The translations under genes and the position numbers were made by a program. From an uncultured Candidatus Saccharibacteria bacterium (lineage in GTDB: Bacteria; Patescibacteriota; Minisyncoccia; UBA6257; WO2-44-18), in the NCBI GenBank assembly GCA_964373675.1, contig CAYJVO010000001.1:4327-68326 (forward strand): 64,000 nt of DNA, read 5' to 3'. The notes under the pieces were generated by a model. It was not told the origin of the DNA. It made no database searches and was given only the letters and a program-made list of their open reading frames with translations. Positions 40,156-61,085 of this stretch are shown here, piece by piece (position 1 is the first letter of the stretch; each line of letters begins with the position of its first letter).

Positions 40156-40162
40156 GAAGTTT

Positions 40163-40249
40163 TAGTGAAAAGTCCATCAAGTCCTTAAAGTCCATTAGTT
40201 AGTTAAATATTTAGGTATTTTATCCCAGCGATCGCAAAAATAGAATACC
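40163..40249 (-). repeat. Family C element, copy C2 (inverted orientation)
   Basis: Reverse complement of C1 over about 87 bp. Abuts the nuclease start codon on one side and the murC stop on the other. Confidence 0.7.
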
Positions 40250-40256
40250 TCCACAA

Positions 40257-43580: not shown

Positions 43581-44852
43581 TTATTGAATAGTCTCGTATT
43601 CGCGCAGAACTAATTGAGAGTCAATTTGCTTCATAGTTTCCAAAGCGACCGACACCACAATCAAAATTGCCGTGCCGCCAATAGTTAAAGTTTGAATACC
43701 GGTTAAAATTTGAGTAATAGTTGGCAGAATAGCCACTAAACCAAGGAAGATTGCGCCAAATAAAGTTATTCGTCCTGTCACTTTAGATAAAAATTCTCCC
43801 GAAGGGTCTCCGGGCCGAATGCCGGGAATAAATCCGCCACTGCGCTGAAGATTTTTAGAAATTTCTTTAGGATCAAAAGTGACTGAAGTATAAAAATAAG
43901 TAAAAACAAATACTAAAGCAAAATAAAGTGCGCCGTACAGGAACTGATTATTTAAAAACCGGTTAACTAATTCCTGAAGACGAACAGAAAGGTCGGGGGA
44001 GAAAACTGAAAATAATTGAGCGAAGAATTGCGGAAAAAGCAAAATGGAAATGGCAAAAATAATCGGGATAACTCCGGCTTGGTTGACCTTTAAGGGTAAA
44101 TAGCTCATAGCGCCGCCGTAGATTCTATTGCCGCGAATCCTTTTCGTATAAGAAACAGGGATCTTGCGCTCGCCTTCATTAATAAATACTACTCCGGCAA
44201 TCACTAAAACTGCCAAAATCACAAAGGCCAAGTAAACAGGTAGGTTGCTAGGATCATAAGAAACCACCACGCCACGCACTAAATTCGGCAAACCACTGAC
44301 AATGCCGGCAAAAATGATTAGAGATACGCCGTTACCAAGCTTTTGCTCGGTAATCAGTTCGCCTATCCAAGTTAAAATCAGGGAACCGGCGGCAATAACC
44401 AGAATATTTTGCAGCATATCAAAAAGACCTAATGGAGCCAGCACTTGCTGGCTGATCAAAAGATTTAAAAATCCGTATCCCTGCAAAGCCGCAAGCGGCA
44501 CCGTTAAATAACGGGACATCCGGCTGAATTTTGCTTTGCCCGCAGCTCCCTCTTCGTAATATAAAGCTTTGAGCGATGGGAAAATCATTGTTAAAAGCTG
44601 CATAATAATGGTCGCGGTAATATAGGGTCCAACACCCAGCATGACGATGGAAAGATTGTCCAAGCCGCCTCCGGAAAAAAGGTTAAAAAAACCAAACAGC
44701 TGGTTTGATGATAAGAGGGCTTGAAGCCGCGCCGGGTCAATACCTGGAACAGGAATAGCTGCTAATAAGCGAAAAACGATCAGCCAAAATGCCACTATAA
44801 TAACTTTTTTTCTGATATCCGGAATTCTGAAAATTTGTAGTAATTTGTTCAT
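43581..44852 (-). CDS. secY: Preprotein translocase subunit SecY
   Basis: 423 aa with 10 TM helices. Sits immediately after rplO in the spc operon. Confidence 0.9.
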   Translation of the reverse strand: MNKLLQIFRIPDIRKKVIIVAFWLIVFRLLAAIPVPGIDPARLQALLSSNQLFGFFNLFSGGGLDNLSIVMLGVGPYITATIIMQLLTMIFPSLKALYYEEGAAGKAKFSRMSRYLTVPLAALQGYGFLNLLISQQVLAPLGLFDMLQNILVIAAGSLILTWIGELITEQKLGNGVSLIIFAGIVSGLPNLVRGVVVSYDPSNLPVYLAFVILAVLVIAGVVFINEGERKIPVSYTKRIRGNRIYGGAMSYLPLKVNQAGVIPIIFAISILLFPQFFAQLFSVFSPDLSVRLQELVNRFLNNQFLYGALYFALVFVFTYFYTSVTFDPKEISKNLQRSGGFIPGIRPGDPSGEFLSKVTGRITLFGAIFLGLVAILPTITQILTGIQTLTIGGTAILIVVSVALETMKQIDSQLVLREYETIQ

Positions 44853-45244
44853 AGGATTTTTCCTCCTGCTTTTTCAATTTTTTCTTGCGCTGATTTAGAA
44901 ACCTTTATTCCTTTTACCGTAAAGGCTTTCTTTAATTCACCATCGCCTAAAATTTTGTTTATGTCCGGCAATACATTCGGATCCACCATATTGCCGCTGA
45001 CTCGCTTTTCTAAATCACCAACATTAATTACCGCCCTTTCTTTTTGAACTAATCTTAAATTCTGAGAACCGCGCAGCTTAGGTAAACGCTGAATGTAGTC
45101 GCGTTCTGCCGGACGAATCCGGTGTCCGGAGCGAGACTTTTGTCCTTTTTGACCGCGGCCCGATGTGGTACCGCGTTTGCCGCCGCGTCCTACCCGCGGT
45201 TTCGGATATTTTCGGTGATTTGATTTTAGTTGGTGTAATTGCAT
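44849..45244 (-). CDS. rplO: 50S ribosomal protein L15
   Basis: RVGRGGKRGTTSGRGQKGQKSRSG glycine/basic N-terminal region. Confidence 0.9.
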   Translation of the reverse strand: MQLHQLKSNHRKYPKPRVGRGGKRGTTSGRGQKGQKSRSGHRIRPAERDYIQRLPKLRGSQNLRLVQKERAVINVGDLEKRVSGNMVDPNVLPDINKILGDGELKKAFTVKGIKVSKSAQEKIEKAGGKIL

Positions 45245-45249
45245 ACTAT

Positions 45250-45315
45250 TTTGTTAAATGGTTAATGCGACAGGCGACATGGAAACCCATTTTACATGCC
45301 GCATTTTACATTAAA
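45250..45315. repeat. Family F element, copy F1, occupying the rpsE-rplO spacer where rpmD (L30) is usually found
   Basis: Shares the blocks TGTTAAATGGTTA, AATGCGACA and CGCATTTTACATT with 49760-49848. Confidence 0.6.
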
Positions 45316-45323
45316 CATCGTTG

Positions 45324-45785
45324 CTACTTCTTGACTTTTAATTTCTGCAACGCCGTCAAAGCCGCTAAAGCATTGGTTAATTTATTAGGCGTGCGCCCCA
45401 AACATTTGGCAGTAATGTCTTTTATTCCAGCCAACAGCAAAACTGCCCGAACAGATCCCCCCGCTCTTAAGCCGTGCCCTTCTTTTGCCGGTTTTAACTT
45501 AACCCGTGCCGCGCTGAATTTCGCTTCAACTTCGTGAGGAATGGTTCTTCCGATCAAATTAACTTTCATTAGATGCTTTTTTGCCCGCTCTTTAGCTTTT
45601 CCTATTGCCAAAGCAACATCCGCGCCCTTTCCAATGCCAATGCCAATTCTGCCGTTTTCATCGCCAATTGCTACGGCGGCTCGGAAACGAATGCGCTTAC
45701 CCCCTGCCACTACCCTGGTTACGCGCCGCAAATCCAAAGTTTTATCTTTAAATTCGCTTTTTGGTTTTTGTTCTCTAGGAATCAT
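45324..45785 (-). CDS. rpsE: 30S ribosomal protein S5
   Basis: 153 aa with a dsRBD-like N-domain and GRRFRF-like/VAVGDENGRIGIG motifs. Confidence 0.9.
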   Translation of the reverse strand: MIPREQKPKSEFKDKTLDLRRVTRVVAGGKRIRFRAAVAIGDENGRIGIGIGKGADVALAIGKAKERAKKHLMKVNLIGRTIPHEVEAKFSAARVKLKPAKEGHGLRAGGSVRAVLLLAGIKDITAKCLGRTPNKLTNALAALTALQKLKVKK

Positions 45786-45787
45786 AA

Positions 45788-46144
45788 TTAAAATTTTAAT
45801 CCGGCTTCTCTTGCGCTTTCAGCGATTGCTTTTATTCTACCGTGGAACTTATAAAAACCGCGGCTAAAAACTACTGACTTGACGCCTAGCCGCTTAGCTT
45901 TCTCAGCCACTAATTCGCCCAAAAATTTAGCCTGCCCGGTTTTTGTTTTCGCCCCCTTTTTCAATTCTTTGGTAGAAGCCGAAGCCAAGGTATGTCCTTT
46001 ACTATCGTCTATTAATTGGGCGTAGGTATAGCGGTTGCTTCGAAAAACCGAAAGTCGCGGCCGATCAGCGGTGCCAAAAATCTTAGCCCGACTCCGGCGC
46101 TTTCTCAACTCTCTATTAAAATTTCTTTTAGTAGTCGTGGCCAT
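45788..46144 (-). CDS. rplR: 50S ribosomal protein L18
   Basis: [20 protein letters not shown] motif. Confidence 0.9.
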
Positions 46145-46169
46145 AGTTATTTGTCATAGTCATTTGCCA

Positions 46170-46721
46170 TTATGCCGCTGTCCCAGCTCCCGCGACTTTT
46201 TTGCCTTCCTTGCGGCGGATAACTTCGCCTTTATATCTAATACCCTTGCCTTTGTACGGTTCCGGCTTTTTGATTTTTCTAATCTTTGCCGCCGCTAAAC
46301 CAACGAGGTTTTTATCAATACCGGAGACAGTAATCGTACCCTTCTCAACTGCTATTTTAATGCCGGCTGGAGGCGTAAATTTGGCTGGGTGAGTAAAACC
46401 TACATTTAAAACCAGGGAATTTCCTTCCATGGTGGCGCGAAAACCCACTCCCTCAATTTCCAAAGATTTACTGAACCCGCCGGCAACGCCCTGAATGGCG
46501 TTTTTCAATAAAGCGGCTGCCGTGCCCCAATTTGCCAATGCCTGCTTATGGCTTGCTGAAGGTTTTAATAATGCTTCTTTATCTCTCAGCTCCGCGAAAA
46601 TAAAAGGCGGCAATTTCAATTCCAACGCACCTTGCTTACCTTTAACCTGCAACGTTCCAGCCGCTTCTTTTACTTCCACGCCCTCTGGTATTACAATTGG
46701 TTTTTTAGCTAGTTTACTCAT
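46170..46721 (-). CDS. rplF: 50S ribosomal protein L6
   Basis: 183 aa, two alpha/beta repeats, GKGIRYKGEVIRRKEGK at the C-terminus. Confidence 0.9.
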   Translation of the reverse strand: MSKLAKKPIVIPEGVEVKEAAGTLQVKGKQGALELKLPPFIFAELRDKEALLKPSASHKQALANWGTAAALLKNAIQGVAGGFSKSLEIEGVGFRATMEGNSLVLNVGFTHPAKFTPPAGIKIAVEKGTITVSGIDKNLVGLAAAKIRKIKKPEPYKGKGIRYKGEVIRRKEGKKVAGAGTAA

Positions 46722-46727
46722 TGTAAA

Positions 46728-46858
46728 TGACTACGAAATACGAAATCTTACCAATATACGAAACCGATTTGGTATATTCGCTTGCCTGCCGGCCTTGCTC
46801 CGCCGAAGCGCTACGCGAAGGCGATGCAGGCAGGTACTATTTTCGTATTTGGTAGCTA
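46728..46858. repeat. Family B element, long variant, copy B3 (between rplF and rpsH)
   Basis: About 95% identical to 16207-16332. Fills the 137-bp rplF-rpsH spacer from start codon to stop codon. Confidence 0.75.
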
Positions 46859-47239
46859 CTACCATATTTCAAATAGTATTACTCCCCCGACCTTGGCTTT
46901 GCGCGCATCTTTAAAAGACATGATGCCTTGGGGTGTGGAAATCACTCCTAATCCATAACCCTGTCTTACCTTTTTTAAATCGCGGTAGCCCGCATATATT
47001 CGGCGCGACGGTTTGCTCACAAATTTAATTTCTTCAATTATGCCCCCGCCGTCTTTGTATTTTAATTTAATTTCAATAATTCTCTTGGGCATCCTCCCTT
47101 TCTTTTCTGCCGATTCTATAAACTTATTTTCGGCCAGAATTTGAGCAATAGCTAAATCCATACCAGAATAAGCCGTTTTTACGGTTTCTTTTTTCGCCTT
47201 TTGGGCGTTTTTGATTTTAATTAAGAGATCTGTGTACAT
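46859..47239 (-). CDS. rpsH: 30S ribosomal protein S8
   Basis: MYTDLLIKIKNAQKAKKETV N-terminus. Confidence 0.9.
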   Translation of the reverse strand: MYTDLLIKIKNAQKAKKETVKTAYSGMDLAIAQILAENKFIESAEKKGRMPKRIIEIKLKYKDGGGIIEEIKFVSKPSRRIYAGYRDLKKVRQGYGLGVISTPQGIMSFKDARKAKVGGVILFEIW

Positions 47240-47263
47240 GGTTTTTTATAAGTCCCTAGTGGC

Positions 47264-47449
47264 TTACCAACTAGCCTTTTTTACTCCGGGTATTTCGCCG
47301 CGACTGGCTAATTCCCGAAAACAAATCCGGCAAAGACCGAATGCTCTCATAAAGCCCCGCCGTCTGCCGCAGCGAAAACAACGTCTTACTAATCGGGTAG
47401 AAAATTTTGGTTTCTTTTTTGATCTTGCGACTACGGATTTTTTAGCCAT
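47264..47449 (-). CDS. rpsZ: 30S ribosomal protein S14, type Z (zinc ribbon)
   Basis: 61 aa with [20 protein letters not shown] (C-x2-C...C-x2-C). Confidence 0.9.
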
Positions 47450-47450
47450 G

Positions 47451-47945
47451 CTAAGATTTCTTTAACGGCAACCCGAGTTTTTTGTAGAGCTGAATTGCTT
47501 GCTCGCGTCCCTTAACGGTTTTGGGCACTATTGTTGCTTGCAGCCCAAAGACTTTGGTATTTTCCGGATTAATTTCTGGGAAGACAATATGCTCTTTTAT
47601 TCCTATTGTCAAATTACCATTCTCATCCACATTTTTTAGATTAATGCCTCTAAAATCCCGAATGCGAGGAAGCACCGCCTTAATCAATTTATCTAAAAAA
47701 TCAACCATTAGTTTTCTACGCAAGGTGGCTTTTAATCCAACGATCATCCCTTCCCTGGTCTTAAAACCGGATATAGATTTTTTGGCGGGACGGATTGCGG
47801 GCTTTTGTCCGGTAATTGCCGCCATATCCCTAATAATTTCCGGCAAAATTTTTTCCGCAAAGCCCGGCGTTGTTGATAAACGACCGATTCCGGTATTAAT
47901 TACTATCTTTTCCAGATTCTCCTTTATTTTATTATCTTTAGTCAT
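47451..47945 (-). CDS. rplE: 50S ribosomal protein L5
   Basis: 164 aa, NTGIGRL...GQKP motifs. Confidence 0.9.
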
Positions 47946-47964
47946 ACAAAGAGATGTTTATCCC

Positions 47965-48005
47965 CACACCTTCTCGCGAGGTATTACACTCCGCGAGAAG
48001 GTGTG
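47965..48005 (-). promoter_or_regulatory. Strong hairpin in the rplX-rplE spacer (candidate translational-control or processing structure)
   Basis: CACACCTTCTCGCGAG - 11 nt - CCGCGAGAAGGTGTG, 15 of 16 bp, starting 20 nt upstream of the rplE start. No T-run follows on the transcribed strand. Confidence 0.45.
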
Positions 48006-48013
48006 AAGATTTA

Positions 48014-48319
48014 TTAAAACACGCTTTTACACTTTTTGCAATACCGTACCTTTTGTTCGCCTTCGGCGCGATAACCGACGCGAACTGCTTCTTTGCAATT
48101 AGCACAAACCGGCATCGCCTTTGATTCTTTTAGTGGCCGAATGTTGTTAACTATTTCCCCCTTCCCCCCTTGTTTTTTTGGACGCTGATGTTTTTTATAA
48201 ACATTAAAGCCTTCCACCGTAACAGTTGCTTTGCTGTGATCAACTCTTAAAACTCTGCCCGTCTTCCCCCGGTCTTTGCCAGAAATTATTTTAACCGTAT
48301 CGCCTTTCTTTATCCTCAT
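48014..48319 (-). CDS. rplX: 50S ribosomal protein L24 with C-terminal C4 zinc-ribbon
   Basis: KOW motif GDTVKIISGKDRGKTGRVL. The C-terminus is PVCANCKEAVRVGYRAEGEQKVRYCKKCKSVF (C-x2-C...C-x2-C). Confidence 0.85.
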   Translation of the reverse strand: MRIKKGDTVKIISGKDRGKTGRVLRVDHSKATVTVEGFNVYKKHQRPKKQGGKGEIVNNIRPLKESKAMPVCANCKEAVRVGYRAEGEQKVRYCKKCKSVF

Positions 48320-48428
48320 ATTTTTTACCGCTCCAAATCTACGAATTTGTCCGAAGTTAACGAATAGAATCCAAATAATTTTCGTGAAATGTTCGGCATC
48401 TTCGGATATTTCGGATTATTCGGATCGG

Positions 48429-48797
48429 TCATACTATTTCTTCCGCCATTGAAAAAATGGTTTCAAATCCCTTTTCTTTCAGCTCTCTGGGTATTGGCCC
48501 GAAAATACGGGTTGCTCGAGGTTCCCGCTTTTCATCAATTAAAACAGCCGCATTTTCGTCAAAGCGCACTCTTGTTCCATCGGTACGCCGCAATGGATGG
48601 CGCTGGCGAACTATTACTGCCTTGATTATATCTTTTTTCTTTACCGGTTTTCTTGGCTCAGCCGCTTGAACAGAAGCAATGATAATATCGCCGATGCGGG
48701 CATAACGCTTTCTGCTACCGCCCAAAACTCTAAAACAGCGGACGGTTTTTGCTCCGGAGTTATCCGCCACTTTTAATATGGATCTTTCTTGAATCAT
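48429..48797 (-). CDS. rplN: 50S ribosomal protein L14
   Basis: MIQERSILKVADNSGAK N-terminus. Confidence 0.9.
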   Translation of the reverse strand: MIQERSILKVADNSGAKTVRCFRVLGGSRKRYARIGDIIIASVQAAEPRKPVKKKDIIKAVIVRQRHPLRRTDGTRVRFDENAAVLIDEKREPRATRIFGPIPRELKEKGFETIFSMAEEIV

Positions 48798-48894
48798 AGT
48801 GCTTACGCAGATAACACGAACAATACTAATTTTTACGCGAATGACCCAAATTTTTGTTTTCGTGTCATTCGTGTATACGTTCGTGTTATTAGTG

Positions 48895-49146
48895 TTAAGT
48901 TAATTTACTAACAATTCTCCATCTTTTCTCTTTGGACATCGGCCTAGTTTCTTCAATCACTACCTTATCCCCTATCTTGTACTCATTGTTTTCGCTATGG
49001 GCTTTAAATCTCTTAGTTACTTTGTAGTACTTCAGATAGCGCGGGTGTTTTTTTAACCGCGTTATGGCCACCACTACTGTTTTGTTCATCTTGTCCGACA
49101 CTACAACTCCTTCCAGTATTCGTTTTTTACCCTGTTGATTAGTCAT
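48895..49146 (-). CDS. rpsQ: 30S ribosomal protein S17
   Basis: 83 aa, [16 protein letters not shown]-fold start. Confidence 0.9.
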
Positions 49147-49151
49147 ACTAA

Positions 49152-49346
49152 TTATTTATTTTGGCTTAGTATCGTCAGGATTCGGGCAATATCTTTTTTA
49201 ACTTTATGAATTTCTTTTACATTCTTAACTTTGCCGCCAGCTAAATCGTTTTTTAAATTCCACAAATTGTCGCGAAGTGAGGCCAGTATTTGTTTTAACT
49301 CTGCCCCCGGCTTAGTTTTTAATTGTTCAAATTCTTTTTTCTTCAT
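49152..49346 (-). CDS. rpmC: 50S ribosomal protein L29
   Basis: 64 aa helical protein ([17 protein letters not shown]). Start overlaps the rplP stop. Confidence 0.85.
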
Positions 49347-49756
49347 GCTTTTGATATGATTCTAGTCTTTATCGGCAATTTATGACTGGCTAAACGCAAG
49401 GCCTCCTTGGCTAATTCCGGAGCAACGCCGTCCATTTCAAACAAAATTCTGCCCGGTTTTACCGGAAAAACATAGTGATCCACCGATCCCTTGCCGCCCC
49501 CCATAGTTATTTCCGGCGGCCGTTTGGTAACTGGCTTATCCGGGAAAATCCGAATCCAAAGTTTTCCTTCCCGTTCAATAAAATTTCTAATGGTCTTGCG
49601 GGCGGCTTCAATCTGACGGGAATTAATCCACGCAGAACTCTCGGCTTTTAGTCCAAAGCTTCCGAACATAAGGGTGGTGCCGCGTGTTTCAACAGCCCGA
49701 TCTTTAGACCGTCCCTTTTGCCATTTTCTATGTTTTACTTTTTTTGGTACTAACAT
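49343..49756 (-). CDS. rplP: 50S ribosomal protein L16
   Basis: [17 protein letters not shown]-terminus. Confidence 0.9.
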
Positions 49757-49759
49757 AAT

Positions 49760-49848
49760 TATGTTAAATGGTTATATGTTCAATGCGACATGTGTAAAAT
49801 TAATTTTTAAACTTGCTTGCCACTTGTCGCATTTTACATTTCACTTTT
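49760..49848. repeat. Family F element, copy F2 (rplP-rpsC spacer)
   Basis: Shares sequence blocks with 45250-45315 and has internal inverted symmetry (AATGCGACATGTG...CACTTGTCGCATT). Confidence 0.6.
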
Positions 49849-50520
49849 TTACTTTTCGTTAAATATTTCCCCTTTATAAATCCAGACCTTGACTCCGACG
49901 GTTCCATAATTGCAAAAAGCTGTTGCTTCTCCATAATCAATATCTGCTCTTAAAGTTTGCAGCGGAAGTTTTCCCTTTGAAACCCATTCGCGCCGAGAAA
50001 TTTCCGCTCCATCAATGCGGCCGGACAATCTAATCTTCGCCCCTTGCGCATCTTTGTACTGCATGATGTTTTCCAAATATTTCTTCATGGTGCCGCGGGC
50101 AGGCCGACGCTTTTCTAAATCCCAAGCTATATTTTGAGCCATATTTTGAGCGGAAACCTCAGCTCTTTTTAACTCCTCTACATTTAAGCTGATGGAGAAT
50201 TTCGTCTTTTTTTCTTTGCGTTCTTTAAAAAGTCTAATGAGTTTTTTTTCAATCTGCTTATTAAGTTCCTCAATTCCTTTTCCGCCGCGGCCGATTATTA
50301 AACCGGGGCGGGCGGCTTTAATAAAAATCCGATAAGTTTCGCGGCTCCCCCTCTCAATGTCAATTTTCACAATGCCAGCGGGCTCCAGTTTTTCTTTAAT
50401 AATTCTGCGAATCAAAACATCCTCTTCCAGCTGATATTTATAATCTCCGCCAAACCACCTGGATGACCAGTTTTTCGTAATCCCGAGCCGTAATGAATAT
50501 GGTTTAATTTTCTGTCCCAT
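49849..50520 (-). CDS. rpsC: 30S ribosomal protein S3
   Basis: MGQKIKPYSLRLGI N-terminus and a KH domain. Confidence 0.9.
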   Translation of the reverse strand: MGQKIKPYSLRLGITKNWSSRWFGGDYKYQLEEDVLIRRIIKEKLEPAGIVKIDIERGSRETYRIFIKAARPGLIIGRGGKGIEELNKQIEKKLIRLFKERKEKKTKFSISLNVEELKRAEVSAQNMAQNIAWDLEKRRPARGTMKKYLENIMQYKDAQGAKIRLSGRIDGAEISRREWVSKGKLPLQTLRADIDYGEATAFCNYGTVGVKVWIYKGEIFNEK

Positions 50521-50528
50521 TGTAATAT

Positions 50529-50604
50529 GGCTACGAAATACGAAATTTTACTAATATACGAAATTGGTTTTGTATATTCGTACTATTTTCGTATTTAGTG
50601 GCTG
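50529..50604. repeat. Family B element, short variant, copy B4 (rpsC-rplV spacer)
   Basis: GGCTACGAAATACGAAATTTTACTAATATACGAAATTGGTTTTGTATATTCGTACTATTTTCGTATTTAGTGGCTG. Near-identical to 52366-52438. Confidence 0.75.
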
Positions 50605-51105
50605 TTATACGCTTTTCCTTCTAAATAATCTCTTGAAGAATCCCGGCCTTTCTTGTTTGACTTCTTTTTCTTTTTGCTGCTGCGGTTTTAGAGCCTTCGC
50701 CTTCGGTACTTTCTTTTTCTTTGCTTTTTTTGGAGGCGGCATAATTACAAACCGGCTCGCCAGTGGCTGAGCCGCTTCCTCCAAAGTTAAAATTACATGG
50801 CTCATTTTTTTCTGAATCGGGGTCGCTCGTCCCTGGGCCCGCGGCATGAATCTTTTGAGCATTGGGCCCTGATTAACAATGATTTGCTTAATAAACAGCC
50901 GGCTAGCATCCAGTTTTTGATTATTTTTTGCATTAGCAACCGCTGAATGCAGTAACTTTAATAATGGCTTGGCAGATCGCTGACTTCTCATTAATAATTG
51001 GGCTTCGGCTTCCTGAATCGGCAAACCTCGTAAAATATCGGCGATCAACCTGACTTTGCGAGGCGCAATACTCAAATTGTTTAATTTTACTGTTTCTTGG
51101 TTCAT
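50605..51105 (-). CDS. rplV: 50S ribosomal protein L22 with Lys-rich C-terminal extension
   Basis: L22 core (APRKVRLIADILRG), then ~55 aa of extra K/P/Q-rich sequence. Confidence 0.85.
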   Translation of the reverse strand: MNQETVKLNNLSIAPRKVRLIADILRGLPIQEAEAQLLMRSQRSAKPLLKLLHSAVANAKNNQKLDASRLFIKQIIVNQGPMLKRFMPRAQGRATPIQKKMSHVILTLEEAAQPLASRFVIMPPPKKAKKKKVPKAKALKPQQQKEKEVKQERPGFFKRLFRRKSV

Positions 51106-51109
51106 AAAT

Positions 51110-51454
51110 CTATTTTTTTACCCCCTCAGCTGTCGCCTGAACCGCCTTGGCTTTTTCTGTCTCCGATTGCGCTTGCGCCGCCTCCAGTTCACGCTGCATC
51201 TTGCCACCATGTCTGACGAATTTTCTGGTCGGCGCAAATTCTCCAAGCCGATGGCCGACCATTTCTTCTTTAATTGAAACTTCCACGAAATTCTTGCCAT
51301 TATGGACTCCAAAAGTAAATCCCACCATTTCGGGAGCAATCTCCGAACCGCGAGACCAGGTTTTGATAACCGTCTTATCGCCCGGCTTTAAATTGGCTAT
51401 CTTCTTTAATAGCTTCGGATCAACATATGGGCCTTTCTTGCTTGAACGAGTCAT
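51110..51454 (-). CDS. rpsS: 30S ribosomal protein S19 with C-terminal extension
   Basis: [11 protein letters not shown]...[13 protein letters not shown] core plus ~25 extra residues. Confidence 0.9.
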
Positions 51455-51526
51455 TTTGTGTCATGTGTCAGGTGTCAGGTGTCATGTACCGTTTTCTTGA
51501 TACTTGACACCTGATACCTGGCACGT
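51455..51526 (-). promoter_or_regulatory. Large hairpin built from heptamer repeats (GTGTCAK x4 opposite TGACACC/TGATACC) in the rplB-rpsS spacer
   Basis: GTGTCATGTGTCAGGTGTCAGGTGTCATGTACC...TGATACTTGACACCTGATACCTGGCAC. Arms are complementary over ~16-20 bp, allowing G:U pairs. Confidence 0.6.
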
Positions 51527-52357
51527 TTAGCGTATTTTTGGCCGCCTCTGCAAAATCAATTTACTTGACCATTTCTTTTTGTTGCGCGTCTTGTGGCCGC
51601 CGGTGACTTTCCCCCATAAAGTTTTCGGCCGGCGAGTGCCGCGCGGCTGTTTTCCTTCGCCGCCTCCATAAGGGTGGTCTACCGGATTCATTGCCGTCCC
51701 CCTTACTGTCGGTCTAATGCCTAGCCAGCGGGAACGCCCGGCCTTACCAATATTTACCAGATTATAATCGGGATTAGAAACTTGTCCAATGGTCGCCAAA
51801 CCGCTGGACGATACCTTACGAACTTCTTTGGAAGCAAGTTTGAGGGTGGTAAAACCGCCATCGTGCCCCAAAATTTCTGCAAAAGCACCGGCTGAACGCG
51901 CTAATCTTCCGCCGCTGCCGGGACGAATTTCTATATTATGAACTTGATAGCCGATGGGAAGATTCTTTAAAGGCAGCCGGTTGCCGACTTTTAACGGCGC
52001 ATTTTCCGAAGTAATAACAGTATCCCCCGCTTTTAGGCCTTTTGAAGCTAAAATATAACTGCGTTTGCCATCTTTATAAATGATTAAGGCGATGAAGGCG
52101 GAACGATAAGGATCGTATTCCAAGGTTTCAACTTTTGCCGGAATATTCATCCGGTTTTGTTTAAAATCTACCAAACGGTACAGTTTTTTATTTCCGCCTT
52201 CTTGGTGACGAGTGGCAATTACGCCGCGATTGTTGCGGCCGGCATTCGCGCGCAAACGAACCGTAAGCGGTTTGTACGGCTCGGTTTTGGTCAAAACCGA
52301 ATAATCAACTGAGGTCATTTGCCTTCTTGATGGACTTGTTGGTTTGTAAGTTTTCAT
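51527..52357 (-). CDS. rplB: 50S ribosomal protein L2
   Basis: 276 aa with GRNNRGVIATRHQEGG and VDHPYGGGEG motifs. Confidence 0.9.
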   Translation of the reverse strand: MKTYKPTSPSRRQMTSVDYSVLTKTEPYKPLTVRLRANAGRNNRGVIATRHQEGGNKKLYRLVDFKQNRMNIPAKVETLEYDPYRSAFIALIIYKDGKRSYILASKGLKAGDTVITSENAPLKVGNRLPLKNLPIGYQVHNIEIRPGSGGRLARSAGAFAEILGHDGGFTTLKLASKEVRKVSSSGLATIGQVSNPDYNLVNIGKAGRSRWLGIRPTVRGTAMNPVDHPYGGGEGKQPRGTRRPKTLWGKVTGGHKTRNKKKWSSKLILQRRPKIR

Positions 52358-52365
52358 TGAGATCT

Positions 52366-52438
52366 AACTACGATACGAAATTTTACTAATATACGAAATT
52401 GGTTTTGTATATTCGTACTATTTTCGTATTTGGTAGCC
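52366..52438. repeat. Family B element, short variant, copy B5 (rplB-rplW spacer)
   Basis: Near-identical to B4. Fills the spacer from the rplW stop to the rplB start. Confidence 0.75.
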
Positions 52439-52439
52439 A

Positions 52440-52721
52440 TTAATGTGGTAATATATCTAATTTTTGGCCTTCTTTCAGTGTAACGATAGCTTTCTTGTAC
52501 CCGGGCTTTATTCCAACCATTTTTCCCAGCCGGCGCGGCTTAGGCCGAGTATTTACGATATTAATCCGAATCACATCAACTTTATAAATCTCCTTGATGG
52601 CTTTTTTTATTTCCGGGCTTGCGGCTTTATCATCAACCAAAAAGATGTATTTGCCAAAAGCGCTCATCCGAGTTGCTTTTTCAGTAATAATTGGTCTTTT
52701 GACTAAAAATTTGTTGATCAT
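52440..52721 (-). CDS. rplW: 50S ribosomal protein L23
   Basis: 93 aa, KRPIITEKAT...KYIFLVD motif. Confidence 0.85.
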   Translation of the reverse strand: MINKFLVKRPIITEKATRMSAFGKYIFLVDDKAASPEIKKAIKEIYKVDVIRINIVNTRPKPRRLGKMVGIKPGYKKAIVTLKEGQKLDILPH

Positions 52722-53332
52722 TTTATTTCATTAATTGCCCGTTGATCCATTAAAATCTGCTTATATTTCAAAATATCCTCTACATTCAAAGAATTAGGGT
52801 GCGAGCTTTTCACTTTTGGCAAATTGGCTGAGGCCCTGAAAATTGTTTTATTGTCCATGGCTGGAAGCAAAAGCGCATTAAGAGTCGCATTTAAGATGCC
52901 GCTTAATTGGCTAACTAATTCCTTGGTTTTAGGATTGGCTATCACCAGTGAATCCACAATTTTTAACTCGCCATCAGCTAAACGCCGTGATAAAGCGGCG
53001 TAAATGGCGGCGCGAAGCATCTTTTTATTTATTTTTTGGGTAAAAATTTTTTCGCTGGTCGGGCCATGCGCTACTCCGCCGCCGCGCCAAATCGGTGAAC
53101 GAATGGAACCGTGACGAGCCCGGCCGGTGTGTTTTTGTCGCCAAGGTTTCCTGCCGCCGCCGCTCACCTCACCTCTACCTTTGGTGTTGGCCAGGGACCG
53201 ACGGCGATTAGCCTGCTGAGCAACAACTGCCTGATACACCAAATCAGCATTCCATTTATGCCTAAATATTTTGTCCGGCAAATCAATCTCGCCAACACTC
53301 TCCCCTCTTAAATTGTAAATTTTAGTAATCAT
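52718..53332 (-). CDS. rplD: 50S ribosomal protein L4
   Basis: 204 aa with QANRRRSLANTKGRGEVSGGGRKPWRQKHTGRAR. Confidence 0.9.
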   Translation of the reverse strand: MITKIYNLRGESVGEIDLPDKIFRHKWNADLVYQAVVAQQANRRRSLANTKGRGEVSGGGRKPWRQKHTGRARHGSIRSPIWRGGGVAHGPTSEKIFTQKINKKMLRAAIYAALSRRLADGELKIVDSLVIANPKTKELVSQLSGILNATLNALLLPAMDNKTIFRASANLPKVKSSHPNSLNVEDILKYKQILMDQRAINEIK

Positions 53333-53350
53333 GACGCTATTTGTAAATTT

Positions 53351-53773
53351 CTATTTTCTAATTTCTATCTTCCCGCTGTTATTCCCGGGCACCGCGCCTT
53401 TCAAAAAAACCAGCTTCTGTTCTTTATCTACATTAACAACCAACAAATTTTTAATCGTTGCCCGTCCGCCGCCCATTCGGCCAGGCATCCGCCTGCCCGG
53501 AAGTACTCTTTGCGCCGCAGTATTGCCGATTGATCCCGGAGCGCGGTGACGATTTTTTTGGCCGTGAGTTTTTGGGCCGCCGGCAAAACCATGCCGCTTA
53601 ACCACGCCCTGAAATCCTTTTCCTTTGGTAATTCCACTCACTTTTACAAGGTCGCCCTTCTTTACGAATTCTAAATCTGCCCCGTTTTCTAATTTTATCG
53701 GAGTGACAGCAATCGCTCGGTCATTATCAAACGTTTGAGTCATTTTTAACTTTTTACCGCTAACTTTGTTCAT
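53351..53773 (-). CDS. rplC: 50S ribosomal protein L3, unusually short (~140 aa)
   Basis: MNKVSGKKLKMTQTFDNDRAIAVTPIKL aligns with the canonical L3 N-terminus (MKGLLGKKVGMTQIF...). TKGKGFQGVVKRHGFAGGPKTHG...PGSIG aligns with the conserved central and C-terminal region. The ~60-70 residues normally between these blocks are absent. The track ORF starts 15 codons upstream (53818). Confidence 0.8.
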   Translation of the reverse strand: MNKVSGKKLKMTQTFDNDRAIAVTPIKLENGADLEFVKKGDLVKVSGITKGKGFQGVVKRHGFAGGPKTHGQKNRHRAPGSIGNTAAQRVLPGRRMPGRMGGGRATIKNLLVVNVDKEQKLVFLKGAVPGNNSGKIEIRK

Positions 53774-53844
53774 TGGATTTTTACAAAAACAACCGCTAGA
53801 CAGCGGTTGTTTTTGCACTACTGACTAGCCAGAATATTGTACGC

Positions 53845-54171
53845 CTAAACCATCTTGATTTCAATATCTACGCCGGCGGGTAAATTAAGTTTAGATAAAG
53901 ATTCTATAATTGCCTGGTTTGGATTAAGAATGTCAATTAGTCTTTTATGAACCCGCAGCTCAAACTGCTCCCGAGAGTCTTTATGAACGAAAGTTGAACG
54001 GTTAACGGTATACTTTTTAATCTCGGTGGGCAGCGGAATCGGACCAATAACCTCCGCATCCTGACGCTTAGCGGCTTCTATAATCTGCTTGCAGGAATTA
54101 TCAATTAATTTATGGTCATAGGCTTTAATCCGAAGCCGTAATTTTTCTTTTTCAACTTCCTTCTTTACCAT
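53845..54171 (-). CDS. rpsJ: 30S ribosomal protein S10
   Basis: [15 protein letters not shown]...[20 protein letters not shown] motifs. Confidence 0.9.
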
Positions 54172-54174
54172 TGC

Positions 54175-54253
54175 GATCCGCTACTAAATACGAAATTTTT
54201 ACGAATATACTAAATGTTTTTCGTACTTTCGTAAATTTTCGTATTTAGTAGCC
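54175..54253. repeat. Family B element, short variant, copy B6, directly abutting the rpsJ start codon
   Basis: CTACTAAATACGAAATTTTTACGAATATACTAAATGTTTTTCGTACTTTCGTAAATTTTCGTATTTAGTAGCC. The same element with the same junction sequence (GCGATCCG-CAT) precedes rpsG at 58218-58295. Confidence 0.75.
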
Positions 54254-54289
54254 AATGAACTTATTGTTTGATCCGTATATTGGAGCAGT

Positions 54290-55489
54290 TTACTTGAGGA
54301 TTTTGACAACAACGCCAGCGCCCACGGTCTTGCCGCCTTCGCGGATGGCAAACCGCTGTTTTTCTTCCAAGGCAACTGGCGCAATTAATTTAATGACGAG
54401 TTTGATGGTATCGCCAGGCATAACCATTTCCATACCTTGGGGCAGGGTTACCTCGCCAGTAACATCAGTGGTCCGGATGTAAAACTGAGGTTTATATCCT
54501 TTAAAGAATGGGGTGTGGCGTCCGCCTTCTTCTTTACTTAACACATAAACTTCGCTGTCAAATTCCGTATGTGGCGTCACGCTGCCCGGTTTGGCAATCA
54601 CCTGGCCGCGTTCTACATCTTCTTTTTTCAAACCGCGCAGCAAAATGCCCACATTGTCGCCGGCCCGACCCTCGTCCAAAAGCTTATTAAACATTTCAAT
54701 GCCGGTTACCACGGTTTTTTGAGTTGGCTTCAAACCTATAATTTCCACTTCTTCATTAAGCTTCACGATGCCGCGTTCCGCTCTTCCGGTTACTACCGTA
54801 CCGCGGCCCTCAATAGAAAAAATGTCTTCTATGGGCATCAAAAACGGTTTGCTGATGTCGCGAACCGGTTCAGGAATATATTCATCTAAAGCTTTGACTA
54901 AATCTAAAATCGGCTTAGCAACAGGATCGTCAGCAGACTTAGCATTAAGCGCATTTAAGGCCGAACCGCGAATGACTGGCGTAGTATCCCCCGGAAATTC
55001 GTATTTTTTTAAAAGTTCGCGAACCTCGGATTCTACCAAATCAATAAGTTCCGGGTCGTCAACTGCATCAACTTTGTTTAAGAAAACAACTAAAGCTGGC
55101 ACGCCGACTTGGCGGGCGAGCAGAATATGCTCTCTAGTTTGAGGCATCGGGCCGTCAGCCGCGGAAACTACCAGAATCGCGCCATCCATCTGAGCCGCGC
55201 CGGTAATCATATTTTTGATATAATCAGCGTGTCCGGGAGCGTCAATGTGAGCATAGTGACGCTTGTCTGATTCATATTCAGAATGGTGAAGAGCAATAGT
55301 AATGCCGCGGGCTTTTTCTTCCGGAGCATTATCAATGTCATCAACCGACTCCTCTTTTTTAGCCAAACCTTTTAAGAAAAGAATGTGGGTCAAAGCCGCA
55401 GTAAGCGTGGTTTTGCCATGATCAACGTGCCCAATAGTACCAACATTGACATGAGGTTTGGTTCTAACAAATTTTTCTTTTTCCGCCAT
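54290..55489 (-). CDS. tuf: Elongation factor Tu
   Basis: [18 protein letters not shown] and NKVD G-motifs. 399 aa. Confidence 0.95.
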
Positions 55490-55528
55490 ACTTTTTTATT
55501 TATTATTTATTCACGACAATAATCCGAT

Positions 55529-55556
55529 TTTATAGGAAACCCCCTTAATATGTCAA
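55529..55556 (-). promoter_or_regulatory. Sigma70-like promoter (TTGACA-16nt-TATAAA) in the fusA-tuf spacer
   Basis: Minus-strand reading: CTTGACATATTAAGGGGGTTTCCTATAAAATC, about 40 nt upstream of the tuf ATG. Confidence 0.5.
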
Positions 55557-55584
55557 GAGGTAAAAGGTGTAAACAAAAAACTTC

Positions 55585-57717
55585 TTATTTCTTACCTTCA
55601 ATAATCAATTGAGCCACGCTCTGAGGAACTTCCTCATAATGACTGAACTCCATGTTAAAAGTTCCGCGGCCCTGCGTCATAGAACGCAGCTTGGTCGCAT
55701 AGCCAAACATTTCTGAAAGCGGCACCTTGGTATCAATAACTTTTATGGTTCCCATTCGGTCACTCATTGCTTCAATTTTGCCTCGTTTGGAGCTTATATC
55801 GCCGGTAATGTCACCTAAAAATTCCGTCGGCATAATCACCTGCACCTTCATAATTGGTTCCAAGATCACCGGTTTGGAGCGCTTAGCGCCTTCTTGAAAG
55901 GCAATTGATCCAGCCACCTTGAAAGCCATTTCCGAAGAATCCACTTCGTGATAGGAACCGTCGTAAAGAGTAACTATAACGTCTGTCATCGGGTAGCCGG
56001 CAACAATACCTTTATTCATCGCTTCCTTAATACCTTTTTCCGTCGCCGGAATGTATTCTTGTGGAATCACGCCTCCTTTAATGGCGTTAATAAACTCAAA
56101 TCCCCTGCCGCGTTCATTGGGCTCTAATTTTAGGCGCACGTGGCCATATTGGCCGCGGCCGCCTGACTGACGGATATACTTCCCCTCTGCCTCGCCATTA
56201 GCTTTAATAGTTTCTTTATAAGCAACTTGAGGGCGACCGGTGTTGGCCTCTACATGAAACTCGCGCTTCATGCGCTCCACAATGATTTCCAAATGCAGTT
56301 CGCCCATGCCAGATATAATGGTTTCTCCGGTTTCAAGATCGCCAGCAACCCGAAAAGTCGGATCCTCTTCTCCAAGACGACGTAAAGCCACGCCCATTTT
56401 CTCCTGATCGACTTTAGTCTTTGGTTCAATGCGCATACTGATAACCGGTTCCGGAAAAATAATTTTTTCCAAAATTATTGGGTTTTCGGGGTCGCATAAA
56501 GTATCGCCGGTGGCAGTGTCTTTCAAACCGACAATGGCGCCCAAATCTCCCGCCGGAATTTCCTCAACTTCTTCACGCTTGTTAGCATGCATCCGCACCA
56601 AACGGCCCACCCGTTCCTGAAAATTCTTCGCGGAATTATAAATGTAACTGCCACGCTTCATTACGCCGGAATAAACTCTTAAAAAGGTTAAAGAGCCCAT
56701 AAACGGGTCAGCCGCGATTTTAAACGCCAAAGCTGCCATCAGCTCTTCATCTTTGGAATGACGCAGGAGTTCGGCTCCGGTTTTAGGATCAATCCCTTTC
56801 ACCGGCGGAATGTCCAGCGGCGAAGGCAGGTAATCTATAACTGCGTCCAGAACTAGCTGAACCCCTTTGTTTTTTAAGGCCGAACCGGCCAGTACCGGAA
56901 TAATTGTTCCGGCAATAGTCGCTTTACGCAAAAGCTTTTTTAATTCCTCCAATGGCGGTTCTTTGCCTTCCAAATAAGCGCTCATAGCCGCATCATCCTG
57001 CTCAACAATTTTTTCAATCAGTTCATGGCGCCGTTTTTCCGCGGCCTCCGTGTACTCTGCCGGAATATCCGTTTCCACTACTCGCTCCCCTTTTTCTCCC
57101 TCAAAATAAAATGCCTTCCTCCGTAAAAGATCTATTAACCCTTTAAACTCGGCTTCTAGTCCGATAGGAATCTGCAATGGAAGAGCGAGGGGATTTAAAC
57201 GTTCGCGAATAGACTGCAGACTCCCCTCAAAACTTGCGCCTGTCCGGTCTAATTTATTGATAAAACAAAGTCTGGGCACGCCATATTCATCCGCGTATCG
57301 CCAATTAGTTTCCGACTGCGGCTCCACGCCTGATACTCCATCAAAAACCACTACTGCGCCATCCAAAACGCGCAAAGAACGCTTCACTTCAATCGTAAAA
57401 TCAATGTGGCCCGGCGTATCAATCAGATTAATACGGTGCTCAAATTCTTTTCTGCGTTGGTCCGCGTTTAAATCCGCGGAAGTCCGCGCCACGTATGTGG
57501 GGGTCCAAAAACAAGTCGTAACGGCAGCCGTAATGGTGATGCCGCGCTCTCGTTCCTGTTCCATCCAGTCCATTACCGTATCACCGGTATGCACTTCTCC
57601 GATCCGATGAGCAACACCGGTATAAAAAAGAATCCGTTCCGAAACGGTTGTCTTTCCGGCATCAATATGGGCAATGATGCCGATATCTCTGACCTTCTCA
57701 ATAGGATAAAGCCTCAT
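55585..57717 (-). CDS. fusA: Elongation factor G
   Basis: [18 protein letters not shown] and NKLD. 710 aa, domains I-V. Confidence 0.95.
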
Positions 57718-57746
57718 GAATTCGTACTCATTTCGTATTTCGTAGC
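57718..57746. repeat. Family B half-element (single arm) in the rpsG-fusA spacer
   Basis: TTCGTACTCATTTCGTATTTCGTAGC. Right-arm sequence only. Confidence 0.5.
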
Positions 57747-58214
57747 CTACCAGGCGAAGTGCGCAAAAGCCCGGTTGGCTTCTGCCATTCTATGAGTATC
57801 CTGCTTCTTTTTAATCGCGGCTCCCTCGTTTTTAACTGCAAGCAGCAGCTCTTCCGCTAACTTCCGGGCCATTGGTTTGCCTTTTTTGGCCCGGGCAGCC
57901 CCAATCAGCCATCGGGCGGCTAAAACAAATCGCCGGTCAACGCGAACCTCGCGGGGAACTTGATAATTGGCGCCACCGATTCTTCGGGAAACGACTTCCA
58001 CCGCTGGAGCGGTATTTTCTAAGGCTTTCTCAAAAACCGAAAGAGGGTCCTGCTTGGTCTCTTTTTTTATAATATCAAAGGTGTTGTATAAAACTTTCTC
58101 TGCAACGGTTTTTTTACCCTCCTTCATTAAATAATTAATAAAGCGTCCAACAGCCACGCTTTTATACTCTAAATCCGGCGTATGTTCTCTTTTGTAATTG
58201 CGTTTCTTACGCAT
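57747..58214 (-). CDS. rpsG: 30S ribosomal protein S7
   Basis: 155 aa with [11 protein letters not shown]...[11 protein letters not shown] motifs. Confidence 0.9.
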
Positions 58215-58217
58215 TGC

Positions 58218-58295
58218 GATCCGCTACTAAATACGAAATTTTTACGAATATACTAAGTGTTTTTCGTACTTTCGTAAATTTTCGTATTTCGTAGC
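58218..58295. repeat. Family B element, short variant, copy B7 (rpsL-rpsG spacer)
   Basis: Differs from B6 at 2-3 positions. Confidence 0.75.
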
Positions 58296-58298
58296 TAA

Positions 58299-58721
58299 TT
58301 AACTTGTTGCTTCCTTCGGCATCTTCGCGCCATACCCCGACCGTTGCTGCCTTCTTGCTTCCACGCCAGAGGCGTCCAGGACGCCGCGCACAATATGATA
58401 ACGGACGCCCGGCAAATCTTTTGCGCGTCCGCCGCGAACCATAACCACTGAGTGTTCCTGTAAATTATGACCTTCTCCCGGAATATAAGCGGTTATTTCC
58501 ATTCCGTTGGTTAAACGCACGCGCGCCACTTTGCGCAAAGCAGAGTTTGGTTTTTTTGGCGTCGTAGTAAAAACCTTCAAACAGACGCCGCGCTTAAATG
58601 GCGACGCCACCTTGACCGGTTTATTTTTAAGCGTGTTGAAATAACGCCTCATGGCCGGCGCTTTGGACTTATACACAGTCACTTTTCTTCCCTTTTTAAT
58701 AAGCTGCCTGATGGTCGGCAT
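58299..58721 (-). CDS. rpsL: 30S ribosomal protein S12 with short C-terminal extension
   Basis: [12 protein letters not shown]...[11 protein letters not shown]...HNLQEHS motifs. 140 aa. Confidence 0.9.
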
Positions 58722-58760
58722 ACCGAAAAGATTAACAAATTATAAAGCTCAAAGTCAAAC

Positions 58761-59417: not shown

Positions 59418-59433
59418 AATCAGTGCGGGATAT

Positions 59434-59455
59434 TTACCCCCACACCTAGTTAGTT
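59434..59455. repeat. Left inverted repeat flanking the GIY-YIG mini-gene
   Basis: TTACCCCCACACCTAGTTAGTT. Its partner at 59666-59692 is AACTAACTAGGTGTGAGGGTTTACCCC, with a 15-bp perfect core CACACCTAGTTAGTT. Confidence 0.7.
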
Positions 59456-59463
59456 TCAATAGT

Positions 59464-59640: not shown

Positions 59641-59665
59641 ACGTCGGGTATCCAAAAGCCTCAAA

Positions 59666-59692
59666 AACTAACTAGGTGTGAGGGTTTACCCC
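59666..59692. repeat. Right inverted repeat flanking the GIY-YIG mini-gene
   Basis: Reverse complement of the left repeat, with the two differences noted there. Confidence 0.7.
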
Positions 59693-59735
59693 TTAGGTAT
59701 TTTAACTTATAATATTCTCGGTTCTTTAATAGTGG

Positions 59736-61070: not shown

Positions 61071-61085
61071 GTCACGCTAAGGAAG

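Follow-up and report, generated by a model that had tools for sequence, protein, structure and literature searches.

A TACGAAA-unit foldback repeat, probably spread by copying, in ribosomal protein operon junctions of a Harrisonbacteria-like genome

What fills the spacer between the ribosomal protein genes rpsH and rplF in the 64-kb stretch of contig CAYJVO010000001.1 analysed here (the window), and how did it get there? The site, at 46728-46858, separates two minus-strand genes and is filled by one copy (c3) of an AT-rich foldback element that carries TACGAAA units in each arm and is present in the window as seven full copies and one half copy (c1 to c8, Table 1). The original prediction, made from the DNA letters, had described eight such sites and read them as a mobile element similar to a MITE (miniature inverted-repeat transposable element). 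Our preferred answer, which we hold to be probable, is that the TACGAAA family is a non-autonomous AT-rich foldback repeat that spread by copy-and-paste. Its behaviour resembles both that of MITEs and that of REPINs (REP doublets forming hairpins, where REP stands for repetitive extragenic palindrome), and it fits the definition of neither.

All eight predicted sites exist, as found by re-reading the sequence and by an arm search. The 15-nt arm CTACNAAATACGAAA (at most two mismatches) has 16 matches in the window compared with 0.9 expected from shuffles, and 14 of the 16 are arms of the eight elements. A 10-mer core with one mismatch allowed matches 39 times (15.6 expected), and the heptamer TACGAAA/TTTCGTA occurs 44 times (approximately 11 expected). 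The elements, delimited from outer CTAC to outer GTAG, span approximately 1.2% of the window and hold 32 of those heptamers, the remaining 12 being at background level. A profile based on seven window copies found no further copy in the window. Every site is intergenic and six of the eight are junctions of the str/S10/spc operon, so the prediction of six copies in these spacers is borne out by the NCBIfam and Pfam identities of the flanking genes.

Two details of the original prediction need adjusting. It had the copies run exactly from stop codon to start codon, which is approximately right: the hairpin base lies 0-3 nt past the stop and 7-10 nt short of the start, and the tuf-rpsJ spacer has 37 nt more upstream of its element. 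It had also given the copies that it numbered B6 and B7 an identical junction with the downstream start codon. That junction, CAT-TGCGATCC-GCTAC, is really at 54175 and 58218 (the sixth and eighth sites listed) and not at the half copy at 57718, beside which the fusA start codon is intact on comparison with relatives. In a second, separate assembly of run ERR3478686, the gene-to-element junctions match the window at 100% identity and contigs stop inside c3 and c6, so the copies are no artefact of one assembly, and the breaks are what one would see at a repeat.

Multiple alignment of the copies gives a common element of approximately 74 nt, from which the long copies c2 and c3 differ solely by a 54-nt GC-rich palindrome inserted between the TTCG and TA of one unit; among the window copies, this insert is confined to these two. 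Each arm ideally consists of four TACGAAA units, spaced start to start by 7, then 10-11, then 8 nt, and a short free loop separates the arms. In predicted RNA folds, each full copy forms one long imperfect hairpin (-19 to -51 kcal/mol, z -4.4 to -9.2; the 137-nt spacer holding c3 gives -51.1 kcal/mol, z = -5.2), and single-stranded DNA folding of the full copies gives z -5.5 to -9.7. The outer stems are contiguous for 16-17 bp, and the last 8-9 nt before the AUG are left unpaired by the predicted RNA fold in six of the seven full copies (4 nt in c2). The full foldback is the conserved unit, with the exception of the single half copy c7, which does not fold (0 kcal/mol). Relative to transcription, four copies lie one way and three the other, e.g. 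c2 is opposite to c3.

Within these hairpins it is the letters that are kept. A variable position of the outer arm is mismatched in most copies, stem mismatches are uncompensated, and a 12-sequence alignment that includes copies from other genomes shows essentially no compensatory change over 24 predicted pairs (covariation term +0.47), i.e. the units are conserved as sequence, without covariation. No conserved open reading frame (ORF) runs through the element, which has stops in most frames and no consistently open one. Promoter and terminator prediction found no sigma-70-like promoter and no intrinsic terminator in any copy, the stems being AT-rich and without a T-run. Attenuation or termination is an unlikely role, given that the hairpins lack a U-tract and are not followed by a promoter. 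Rfam at gathering thresholds returned only tRNAs for the whole window, and a scan with E-values up to 1 over 44000-59500 returned nothing on the elements, so known RNA families and ribosomal-protein leaders were rejected as identities.

Are the copies related by copying, or could each palindrome have formed in place? The original prediction had noted two long copies, about 95% identical, with a GC-rich inner palindrome; these are c2 and c3, which match at 121 of 125 positions, carry the nested 54-nt hairpin at the same point and have unrelated flanks. Since they share this hairpin at unrelated loci, the composite was copied as a unit, and a separate local origin is excluded. Likewise, c6 and c8 agree in 71 of their 73 positions (both pairs are approximately 97% identical), and c4 and c5 are approximately 94% identical. 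Formation in place, through slippage and template switching during replication, would make the copies convergent. It would suit the many different short-unit palindromes in junctions of this operon and of its relatives, as well as an orthologous element whose core is inverted between two other genomes (L029 and L088, described below), which is a rearrangement in place. For the TACGAAA family, however, it is already contradicted by the near-identical composite copies and the other close pairs, and asymmetric inner-unit variants common to Liptonbacteria and Jorgensenbacteria genomes also speak against it. We consider it very improbable.

The likeness of c6 and c8 extends beyond the element. They share the 8-nt GGATCGCA before the start codon and, upstream, approximately 17-27 nt of flank; at c8, this upstream flank belongs to the 3' end of rpsL. 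When the 37-nt flank of c6 is aligned with that 3' end, 13 of the 17 element-proximal positions are alike, and approximately 18 of 27 overall. Going by this alignment, part of the 37-nt stretch beside c6 is flank sequence that was duplicated together with the element.

The insert of c2 and c3 has a distribution of its own. Within it is a small GC-rich hairpin module, CCTGCCTGCCGG...GCAGGCAGG, whose core is CCGCCGAAG, and this core is also found at 5014 and 22757, within a GC-rich repeat family of approximately 90 nt. The CCTGCCTGCCGG stretch also occurs in unrelated inserts of another genome, L130 (8286-8513, 16021-16247). Its distribution suggests that the module is a second tiny mobile hairpin.

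Next is the question of whether the copies were gained or are ancestral. Going by its ribosomal protein L4, the organism belongs among Candidatus Harrisonbacteria-like Parcubacteria. Its best relatives by L4 identity are L201 (72%), L202 (67%) and L205 (66%), and we examined the operons of L201, L202/L203 and L204-L206, a comparison at the level of genera or species. Where the window has a copy, L201 and L202 have 7-11 nt at rpsH-rplF and 1-8 nt at rplW-rplB. The rplV-rpsC spacer is 8 nt in L202 and approximately 4 nt in L201 (TAA-TTAT-ATG), the overlap given by the gene caller for L201 being due to an earlier rpsC start. At tuf-rpsJ, L201 has 26 nt and L202 a foldback of GCGAATG units; at rpsL-rpsG, the genes overlap in L202 (TAATG) and L205 has a GCGACTAG-unit foldback; at rpsG-fusA, L202 has a different foldback.

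No TACGAAA array was found in any of the L4-relative loci examined. Because the six operon junctions are compact, overlapping or occupied by another family in the nearest relatives, the copies were gained, and these orthologous spacers (compared in L201, L202 and L205) identify the window copies as gains rather than conserved leaders. The original prediction of insertion therefore held, and its opposite, i.e. leader structures conserved at the same positions in all relatives and showing covariation, is not what the relatives contain. Relatives known from metagenome contigs were rejected as a source of empty sites since they are too distant (L4 identity at most 54%); other families behave alike there.

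Other families also provide filled and empty junctions. L130 has inserts of 117-227 nt at rplW-rplB, rplN-rplX, rpsN-rpsH, rpsE-rplO and rplO-secY, where L131 has only 3-16 nt. These L130 inserts are MITE-like, some inserts in the L130/L131 series have CCCGTTAATAATA terminal repeats, and the series is a clean filled/empty one for another family. The operon of L205 (Harrisonbacteria RIFCSPHIGHO2_01_FULL_44_13) holds four copies of a 122-nt TACTAAT-unit foldback, all of which end in ...CAGCGTAAGCGT right before a start codon. The same locus has a PD-(D/E)XK (PF13366) gene between rpsG and fusA (4641-5188), flanked by TAATTAG-type repeats.

How far does the architecture reach? A scan of one genome per species with the pattern AAATACGAAA-N30-60-TTTCGTATTT gave at least 119 stretches. 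Most of the matches listed are from Patescibacteria and span many of their lineages (Moran-, Magasanik-, Sacchari-, Lipton-, Sungii-, Jorgensen- and Doudnabacteria). They share the design of the window copies, and several of these genomes have at least 3-5 matches. The profile from the window copies also has full-length matches in Sungii-, Lipton-, Jorgensenbacteria and other genomes, with scores similar to that of the window's own c1. In an alignment across genomes, all eight units are invariant, as is their spacing of 7 / 10-11 / 8 nt, and variation is free in the loop and in the spacers of 3-4 nt and 1 nt; other lineages have GATAC or GTAC where the window copies have the terminal CTAC/GTAG. 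The same pattern gave 9 matches among 2.9 million viral contigs. None shows the TACGAAA array architecture in full, one of them (L211) being a CGAAA-type palindrome of looser build, and we rejected phages as carriers of the array on this basis.

In these other genomes, co-directional genes flank 35 of 45 arrays. Across 43 co-directional junctions, the median distance of the hairpin base is 3 nt from the preceding stop codon and approximately 12 nt from the next start. The neighbours are a broad housekeeping set (ParA/ParB, TatD, S8/L6/L18/L5, RF1, DnaN, PilB), and one Moranbacteria genome has an array at rpsH-rplF, the same junction as c3. Arrays also persist at orthologous junctions whose flanks are only approximately 73-75% identical in DNA (L080/L107, L029/L088, L031/L071 and L086/L101). 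For example, L080 and L107 both have an array at parA-parB with the same 5-nt gap before ATGGAGCC, and L025 and L082 (91% identical) also have one at the same junction. There is thus orthologous persistence in other lineages, yet the copies are absent from the window organism's own relatives. Copies can thus endure for long periods with their units intact, which calls for selection, homogenisation among copies, or a copying enzyme that keeps renewing them. Of all the observations, this is the main one that a reading as purely selfish, transient inserts leaves unexplained.

Two further observations concern these arrays. Between L029 (3037-3113) and L088 (2833-2906), the element core (inner units and loop) is inverted while the outer arms and flanks are collinear, an arrangement that indicates flipping through recombination between the arms. 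Looser palindromic arrays of xxCGAAA units (ATCCGAAA, TTCGAAA, CACGAAA) occur in metagenome-assembled genomes of Omnitrophota, Planctomycetota and Nitrospirota (L002, L008, L039, L055, L058, L102, L108, L120), so the unit-array foldback design may extend beyond Patescibacteria.

Several results weigh against spread by copy-and-paste. Target-site duplications are lacking: none of the window copies has flanking direct repeats, and comparing filled with empty sites reveals no duplicated bases. Among 35 copies from other genomes, there is no target motif beyond the stop codon. No transposase was found in the 64-kb window (Pfam on 40 proteins, with NCBIfam naming 20 others as ordinary housekeeping), and none beside the arrays at 54 loci of other genomes, where ORF clustering gave housekeeping neighbours only. 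For the flanks shared by c6 and c8, precise transposition is a poorer fit than recombination, gene conversion or read-through copying. Persistence with intact units and drifting spacers and loop suggests selection or concerted evolution and not a purely selfish, transient element, although the cross-genome sample was picked by a pattern that includes the outer units (the inner units and GCTAC ends lie outside it). Finally, the idea that the hairpin keeps stop and start codons adjacent is drawn from predicted folding. The earlier label of a mobile MITE-like element therefore stands in part: the palindromes are dispersed, multi-copy, gained and in both orientations, but there is no target-site duplication, no partner transposase was found in the window or beside the 54 array loci, and c6 and c8 share their flanks.

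The search for a partner enzyme turned up two other results. A Pfam scan of 147 array-flanking ORFs found only housekeeping neighbours. A gene between two arrays of L014 was considered as a partner transposase and rejected, as it encodes a small membrane protein instead.

Comparison with known systems helps to define what the family is. The Neisseria Correia element is a classical bacterial MITE, and the TACGAAA element differs from it in that no internal promoter or IHF-type module was detected. In a MITE, a short non-coding core lies between terminal inverted repeats that are at least 10-15 bp long, and each copy is flanked by a target-site duplication of 2-10 bp (PMC11602168). Like a MITE, the TACGAAA element is short, non-coding, intergenic, co-transcribed with its neighbours and seen as filled and empty sites between relatives, and its outer arms, (G)CTACNAAATACGAAA and the complement at 7 of the 8 sites, are MITE-type terminal inverted repeats. 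However, these repeats are built of sub-repeats, there is no TA or other target-site duplication, and neither an insertion sequence nor a transposase that matches turned up in the window, at the 54 array loci or in the viral contigs.

The likeness to REPINs is of another kind. A REP unit is a G+C-rich imperfect palindrome of 20-40 bp with an unpaired GTAG or CGTC tag (PMC3733652), and in a REPIN two inverted units and a spacer form one hairpin, the replicative unit, which is copied by a single-copy REP-associated tyrosine transposase, or RAYT (Bertels & Rainey 2011, PMC3116915; bioRxiv 10.1101/2021.07.10.451892). RAYT is a Y1 transposase, and its gene has the repeats on either side. The TACGAAA element similarly has two inverted arms and a short spacer that make one long hairpin of approximately 70-130 nt. 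Both are extragenic and multi-copy, lack a target-site duplication and have lineage-specific variants; in neither case would one expect the partner enzyme beside most copies. The TACGAAA family may also share with REPINs a long-lasting presence at orthologous sites, accompanied by gain and loss. In contrast to REP units, the TACGAAA arms are AT-rich arrays of direct 7-nt repeats and not self-complementary G+C-rich palindromes, and no RAYT is known to be linked to them. The terminal GTAG is base-paired with CTAC within the stem and differs between lineages, so it is not the unpaired REP tag (PMC3733652).

Other parallels are looser. TIGR arrays, known from the candidate phyla radiation (CPR) and phages, are long tandem dual-spacer units beside a gene for a Nop-domain Tas protein (PMC12045711); we rejected this identity because TACGAAA sites are single and dispersed, with no variable 9-nt spacers and no adjoining Tas-like gene. 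The literature that could be searched has no description of the TACGAAA family: the repeat sequence is absent, keyword searches on Patescibacteria/CPR repeats were likewise empty, and a large MITE survey does not mention these phyla. MIRU (mycobacteria) and ERIC/IRU (enterobacteria) are intercistronic operon repeats near stop and start codons. ERIC is similar in size and is also an imperfect palindrome that is transcribed, but it has no sequence or unit structure in common with the TACGAAA family. MIRU consists of direct tandem units in one orientation with small coupling ORFs that overlap the stop codon upstream and the start codon downstream; the TACGAAA element occurs in both orientations and has no conserved ORF, so a coupling ORF of the MIRU type was rejected. 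In FB-type foldback transposons and the sub-terminal arrays of eukaryotic CACTA/hAT elements, inverted arms are made of short motif copies and the motif is a transposase binding site. These are eukaryotic and much larger, with known transposases and target-site duplications, so the likeness is one of design only. We therefore describe the TACGAAA family as a small palindromic non-autonomous repeat that is distinct in its sub-repeat-array arms, its phylum-wide spread and its filling of stop-to-start junctions in ribosomal operons.

How genes in this genome start translation bears on how such inserts could be tolerated. An SD-like (Shine-Dalgarno-like) 4-mer precedes 5 of 46 genes, which is the background rate, and TATAAT lies 6-9 nt upstream of the ATG at 7860, 12369, 15023, 19075 and 33535. 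Together, these observations suggest that translation starts without Shine-Dalgarno pairing, often on leaderless or near-leaderless mRNAs. In the str operon region, notable sigma-70-like promoters are predicted only in the element-free fusA-tuf spacer and upstream of rpsL.

Under the copy-and-paste reading, the family would have multiplied in this Harrisonbacteria-like genome in both orientations, with copies surviving in the few bases between the stop codon of one co-transcribed gene and the start codon of the next. The heptamers would be recognition sites of a putative copying protein, by analogy with a REPIN and its single-copy RAYT or a MITE and its parent insertion sequence. Such inserts may be tolerated since, in the predicted folds, the insert folds back in the mRNA and the stop and start codons stay approximately 10 unpaired nt apart, as at empty sites. 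With no terminator U-tract and no promoter, the polycistronic transcript and SD-independent initiation downstream would continue, and any effect on mRNA processing or stability would be secondary.

Alternatively, the hairpins could be host-selected RNA elements, each kept for a job in the polycistronic mRNA. Candidate jobs are RNase III-type processing that yields near-leaderless downstream mRNAs, stabilising the 3' end of the upstream cistron, or holding stop and start together for SD-less re-initiation. This explanation is compatible with copy-and-paste spread, mobility being only the mode of arrival, and the intact units at orthologous junctions with diverged flanks (approximately 70-75% identical), the tight placement between stop and start over 43 junctions and the SD-less genome with leaderless-type promoters all favour it. 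In addition, rpsL-rpsG, rpsG-fusA, tuf-rpsJ and rpsH-rplF hold different foldback families in different genomes, and a double-strand RNase could act on contiguous stems of 16-17 bp. However, the nearest relatives manage with 1-11 nt or overlapping genes at the same sites, the stem mismatches are uncompensated with no covariation in 24 pairs, the rpsG-fusA junction holds a half copy that does not fold, and primary sequence is kept on both arms beyond what pairing requires. We therefore regard host selection as a possible but rather unlikely explanation. For an SD-less organism, a co-opted role in processing, stabilisation or re-initiation would be plausible and compatible with the persistence. 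The short spacers of the closest relatives and the uncompensated mismatches speak against such a role.

Conservation of letters rather than pairing could also mean that the eight units are read on double-stranded DNA by a conserved Patescibacteria protein (nucleoid-associated, partition, condensin-loading or a global regulator), the palindrome reflecting a dimeric or oligomeric binder. The invariant spacing across distant lineages, next to variable spacers and loop, is what such an array would show, and some copies adjoin parA/parB and scpA. However, a binding array would not be expected to be absent from the same junctions in close relatives, nor could one sequence-specific protein read the other units of the same genome (ATCCGAA, ACACGAA, GGTGTCA, ATGCGACA). 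Placement seems to follow intergenic space generally: the co-directional share of 35 of 45 is roughly the fraction expected of bacterial gene pairs, and the neighbours are a broad housekeeping mix. We consider a binding array improbable. A more speculative idea, which we would not expect to be correct but think worth stating, is that the TACGAAA foldbacks and their sister families are cargo of a largely vertical replicator found throughout Patescibacteria. It would be REPIN-RAYT-like with a different, heptamer-reading enzyme, and its products may have been co-opted by the host as intercistronic stop-start couplers or processing sites that stand in for SD initiation on polycistronic messages in these SD-less bacteria with leaderless-type promoters.

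Patescibacteria genomes are among the smallest and most gene-dense of bacteria, so lasting repeats in essential operons are unexpected. If a conserved protein reads the heptamer arrays, then an unrecognised mobile or domesticated system would span an entire phylum. Should the hairpins turn out to affect expression, they would bear on how internal cistrons are translated in bacteria without Shine-Dalgarno sequences or long leaders. There is also a practical side: the repeats break short-read assemblies at ribosomal-protein operons, which are markers for the phylogenetic placement of such genomes.

Table 1. Copies of the TACGAAA element in the window, their immediate flanks and other foldbacks of the str/S10/spc operon
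Feature	Position	Strand	Description
Solo TACGAAA unit	9051-9063		Extra unit directly upstream of c1
c1	9064-9144	+	Short form; DUF4015 gene / scpA junction; RNA fold -33.9 kcal/mol, z = -6.7
c2	16207-16331	+	Long form; murG-gltX junction; RNA folding energy -49.1 kcal/mol (z = -4.4)
Nested GC-rich palindrome of c2	16257-16310	+	54 nt; same insertion point as in c3
c3	46731-46855	+	Long form, 125 nt; rpsH-rplF junction; outer arms CTACGAAATACGAAA and TTTCGTATTTGGTAG
Nested GC-rich palindrome of c3, CTTGCCTGCC...GCAGGCAGG	46781-46834	+	54 nt; within a unit, between TTCG and TA
c4	50529-50603	+	Short form; rplV-rpsC junction; RNA z = -6.2, single-stranded DNA z = -7.5
c5	52368-52436	+	Short form; rplW-rplB junction; 2 nt lost from left outer arm; RNA z = -5.7
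c6 junction	54172-54179		Same 8 nt as GGATCGCA, between c6 and rpsJ start codon
c6	54180-54252	-	Short form; tuf-rpsJ junction; inverted relative to c4 and c5; RNA -34.7 kcal/mol, z = -9.2
Flank of c6	54253-54289	-	37 additional nt separating tuf stop codon from c6
c7	57718-57746	+	Half element, single arm; fills the 29-nt rpsG-fusA junction
c8 junction GGATCGCA	58215-58222	-	8 nt between c8 and rpsG start codon
c8	58223-58295	-	Short form; rpsL-rpsG junction; RNA fold z = -6.6
Other-unit palindromes	51455-51526, 49757-49848, 45245-45323, 48798-48894, 48320-48428, 47946-48013		TACGAAA-like architecture, different sequences
GGTGTCA-unit foldback			rplB-rpsS junction
ATGCGACA/ATGTAAA-unit foldbacks			rpsC-rplP and rpsE-rplO junctions
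ACACGAA-unit foldback			rpsQ-rplN junction
ATCCGAA-unit foldback			rplN-rplX junction
Perfect 20-bp hairpin			rplX-rplE junction

The str/S10/spc operon has 26 junctions. Besides the six with the TACGAAA family, six more hold strongly folding palindromes of other short units (Table 1). Two features of its gene content also stood out. The rpmD (L30) gene is absent from the rpsE-rplO junction (45245-45323), and ribosomal protein L3 is short, with 155 aa here (53351-53818) and 130-140 aa in the Harrisonbacteria relatives (L201 1336-1728, L202 9575-9997, L205 9546-9968). Only the C-terminal half of the bacterial L3 model is covered by this short L3, the N-terminal part being missing across the lineage.

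The window contains further repeats that are separate from the TACGAAA family. The GC-rich intergenic family of approximately 90 nt has members at 4977-5066, 22720-22809 and 32013-32102, which are 67-96% identical. A repeat of approximately 70-100 nt with a GCGATCGC (HIP1-like) palindrome occurs at 26713-26816, 40157-40254 and 61003-61071, in both orientations and at 88-96% identity. At 19438-19563, between two plus-strand genes, lies a 126-nt long-range palindrome, AACCTATCTCAATAATAAT...ATTATTATTGAAATAGGTT, which is unrelated to the TACGAAA units. Lastly, 59418-59735 holds a short ORF (MFYVYLIQSKKDDELYTGSTNDLKRRLLEHNQGL...) that is GIY-YIG-like by eye and sits between inverted repeats of approximately 20 nt (CCCCACACCTAGTTAGTTT / AAACTAACTAGGTGTGAGGG); this putative GIY-YIG ORF looks like a small selfish gene cassette.

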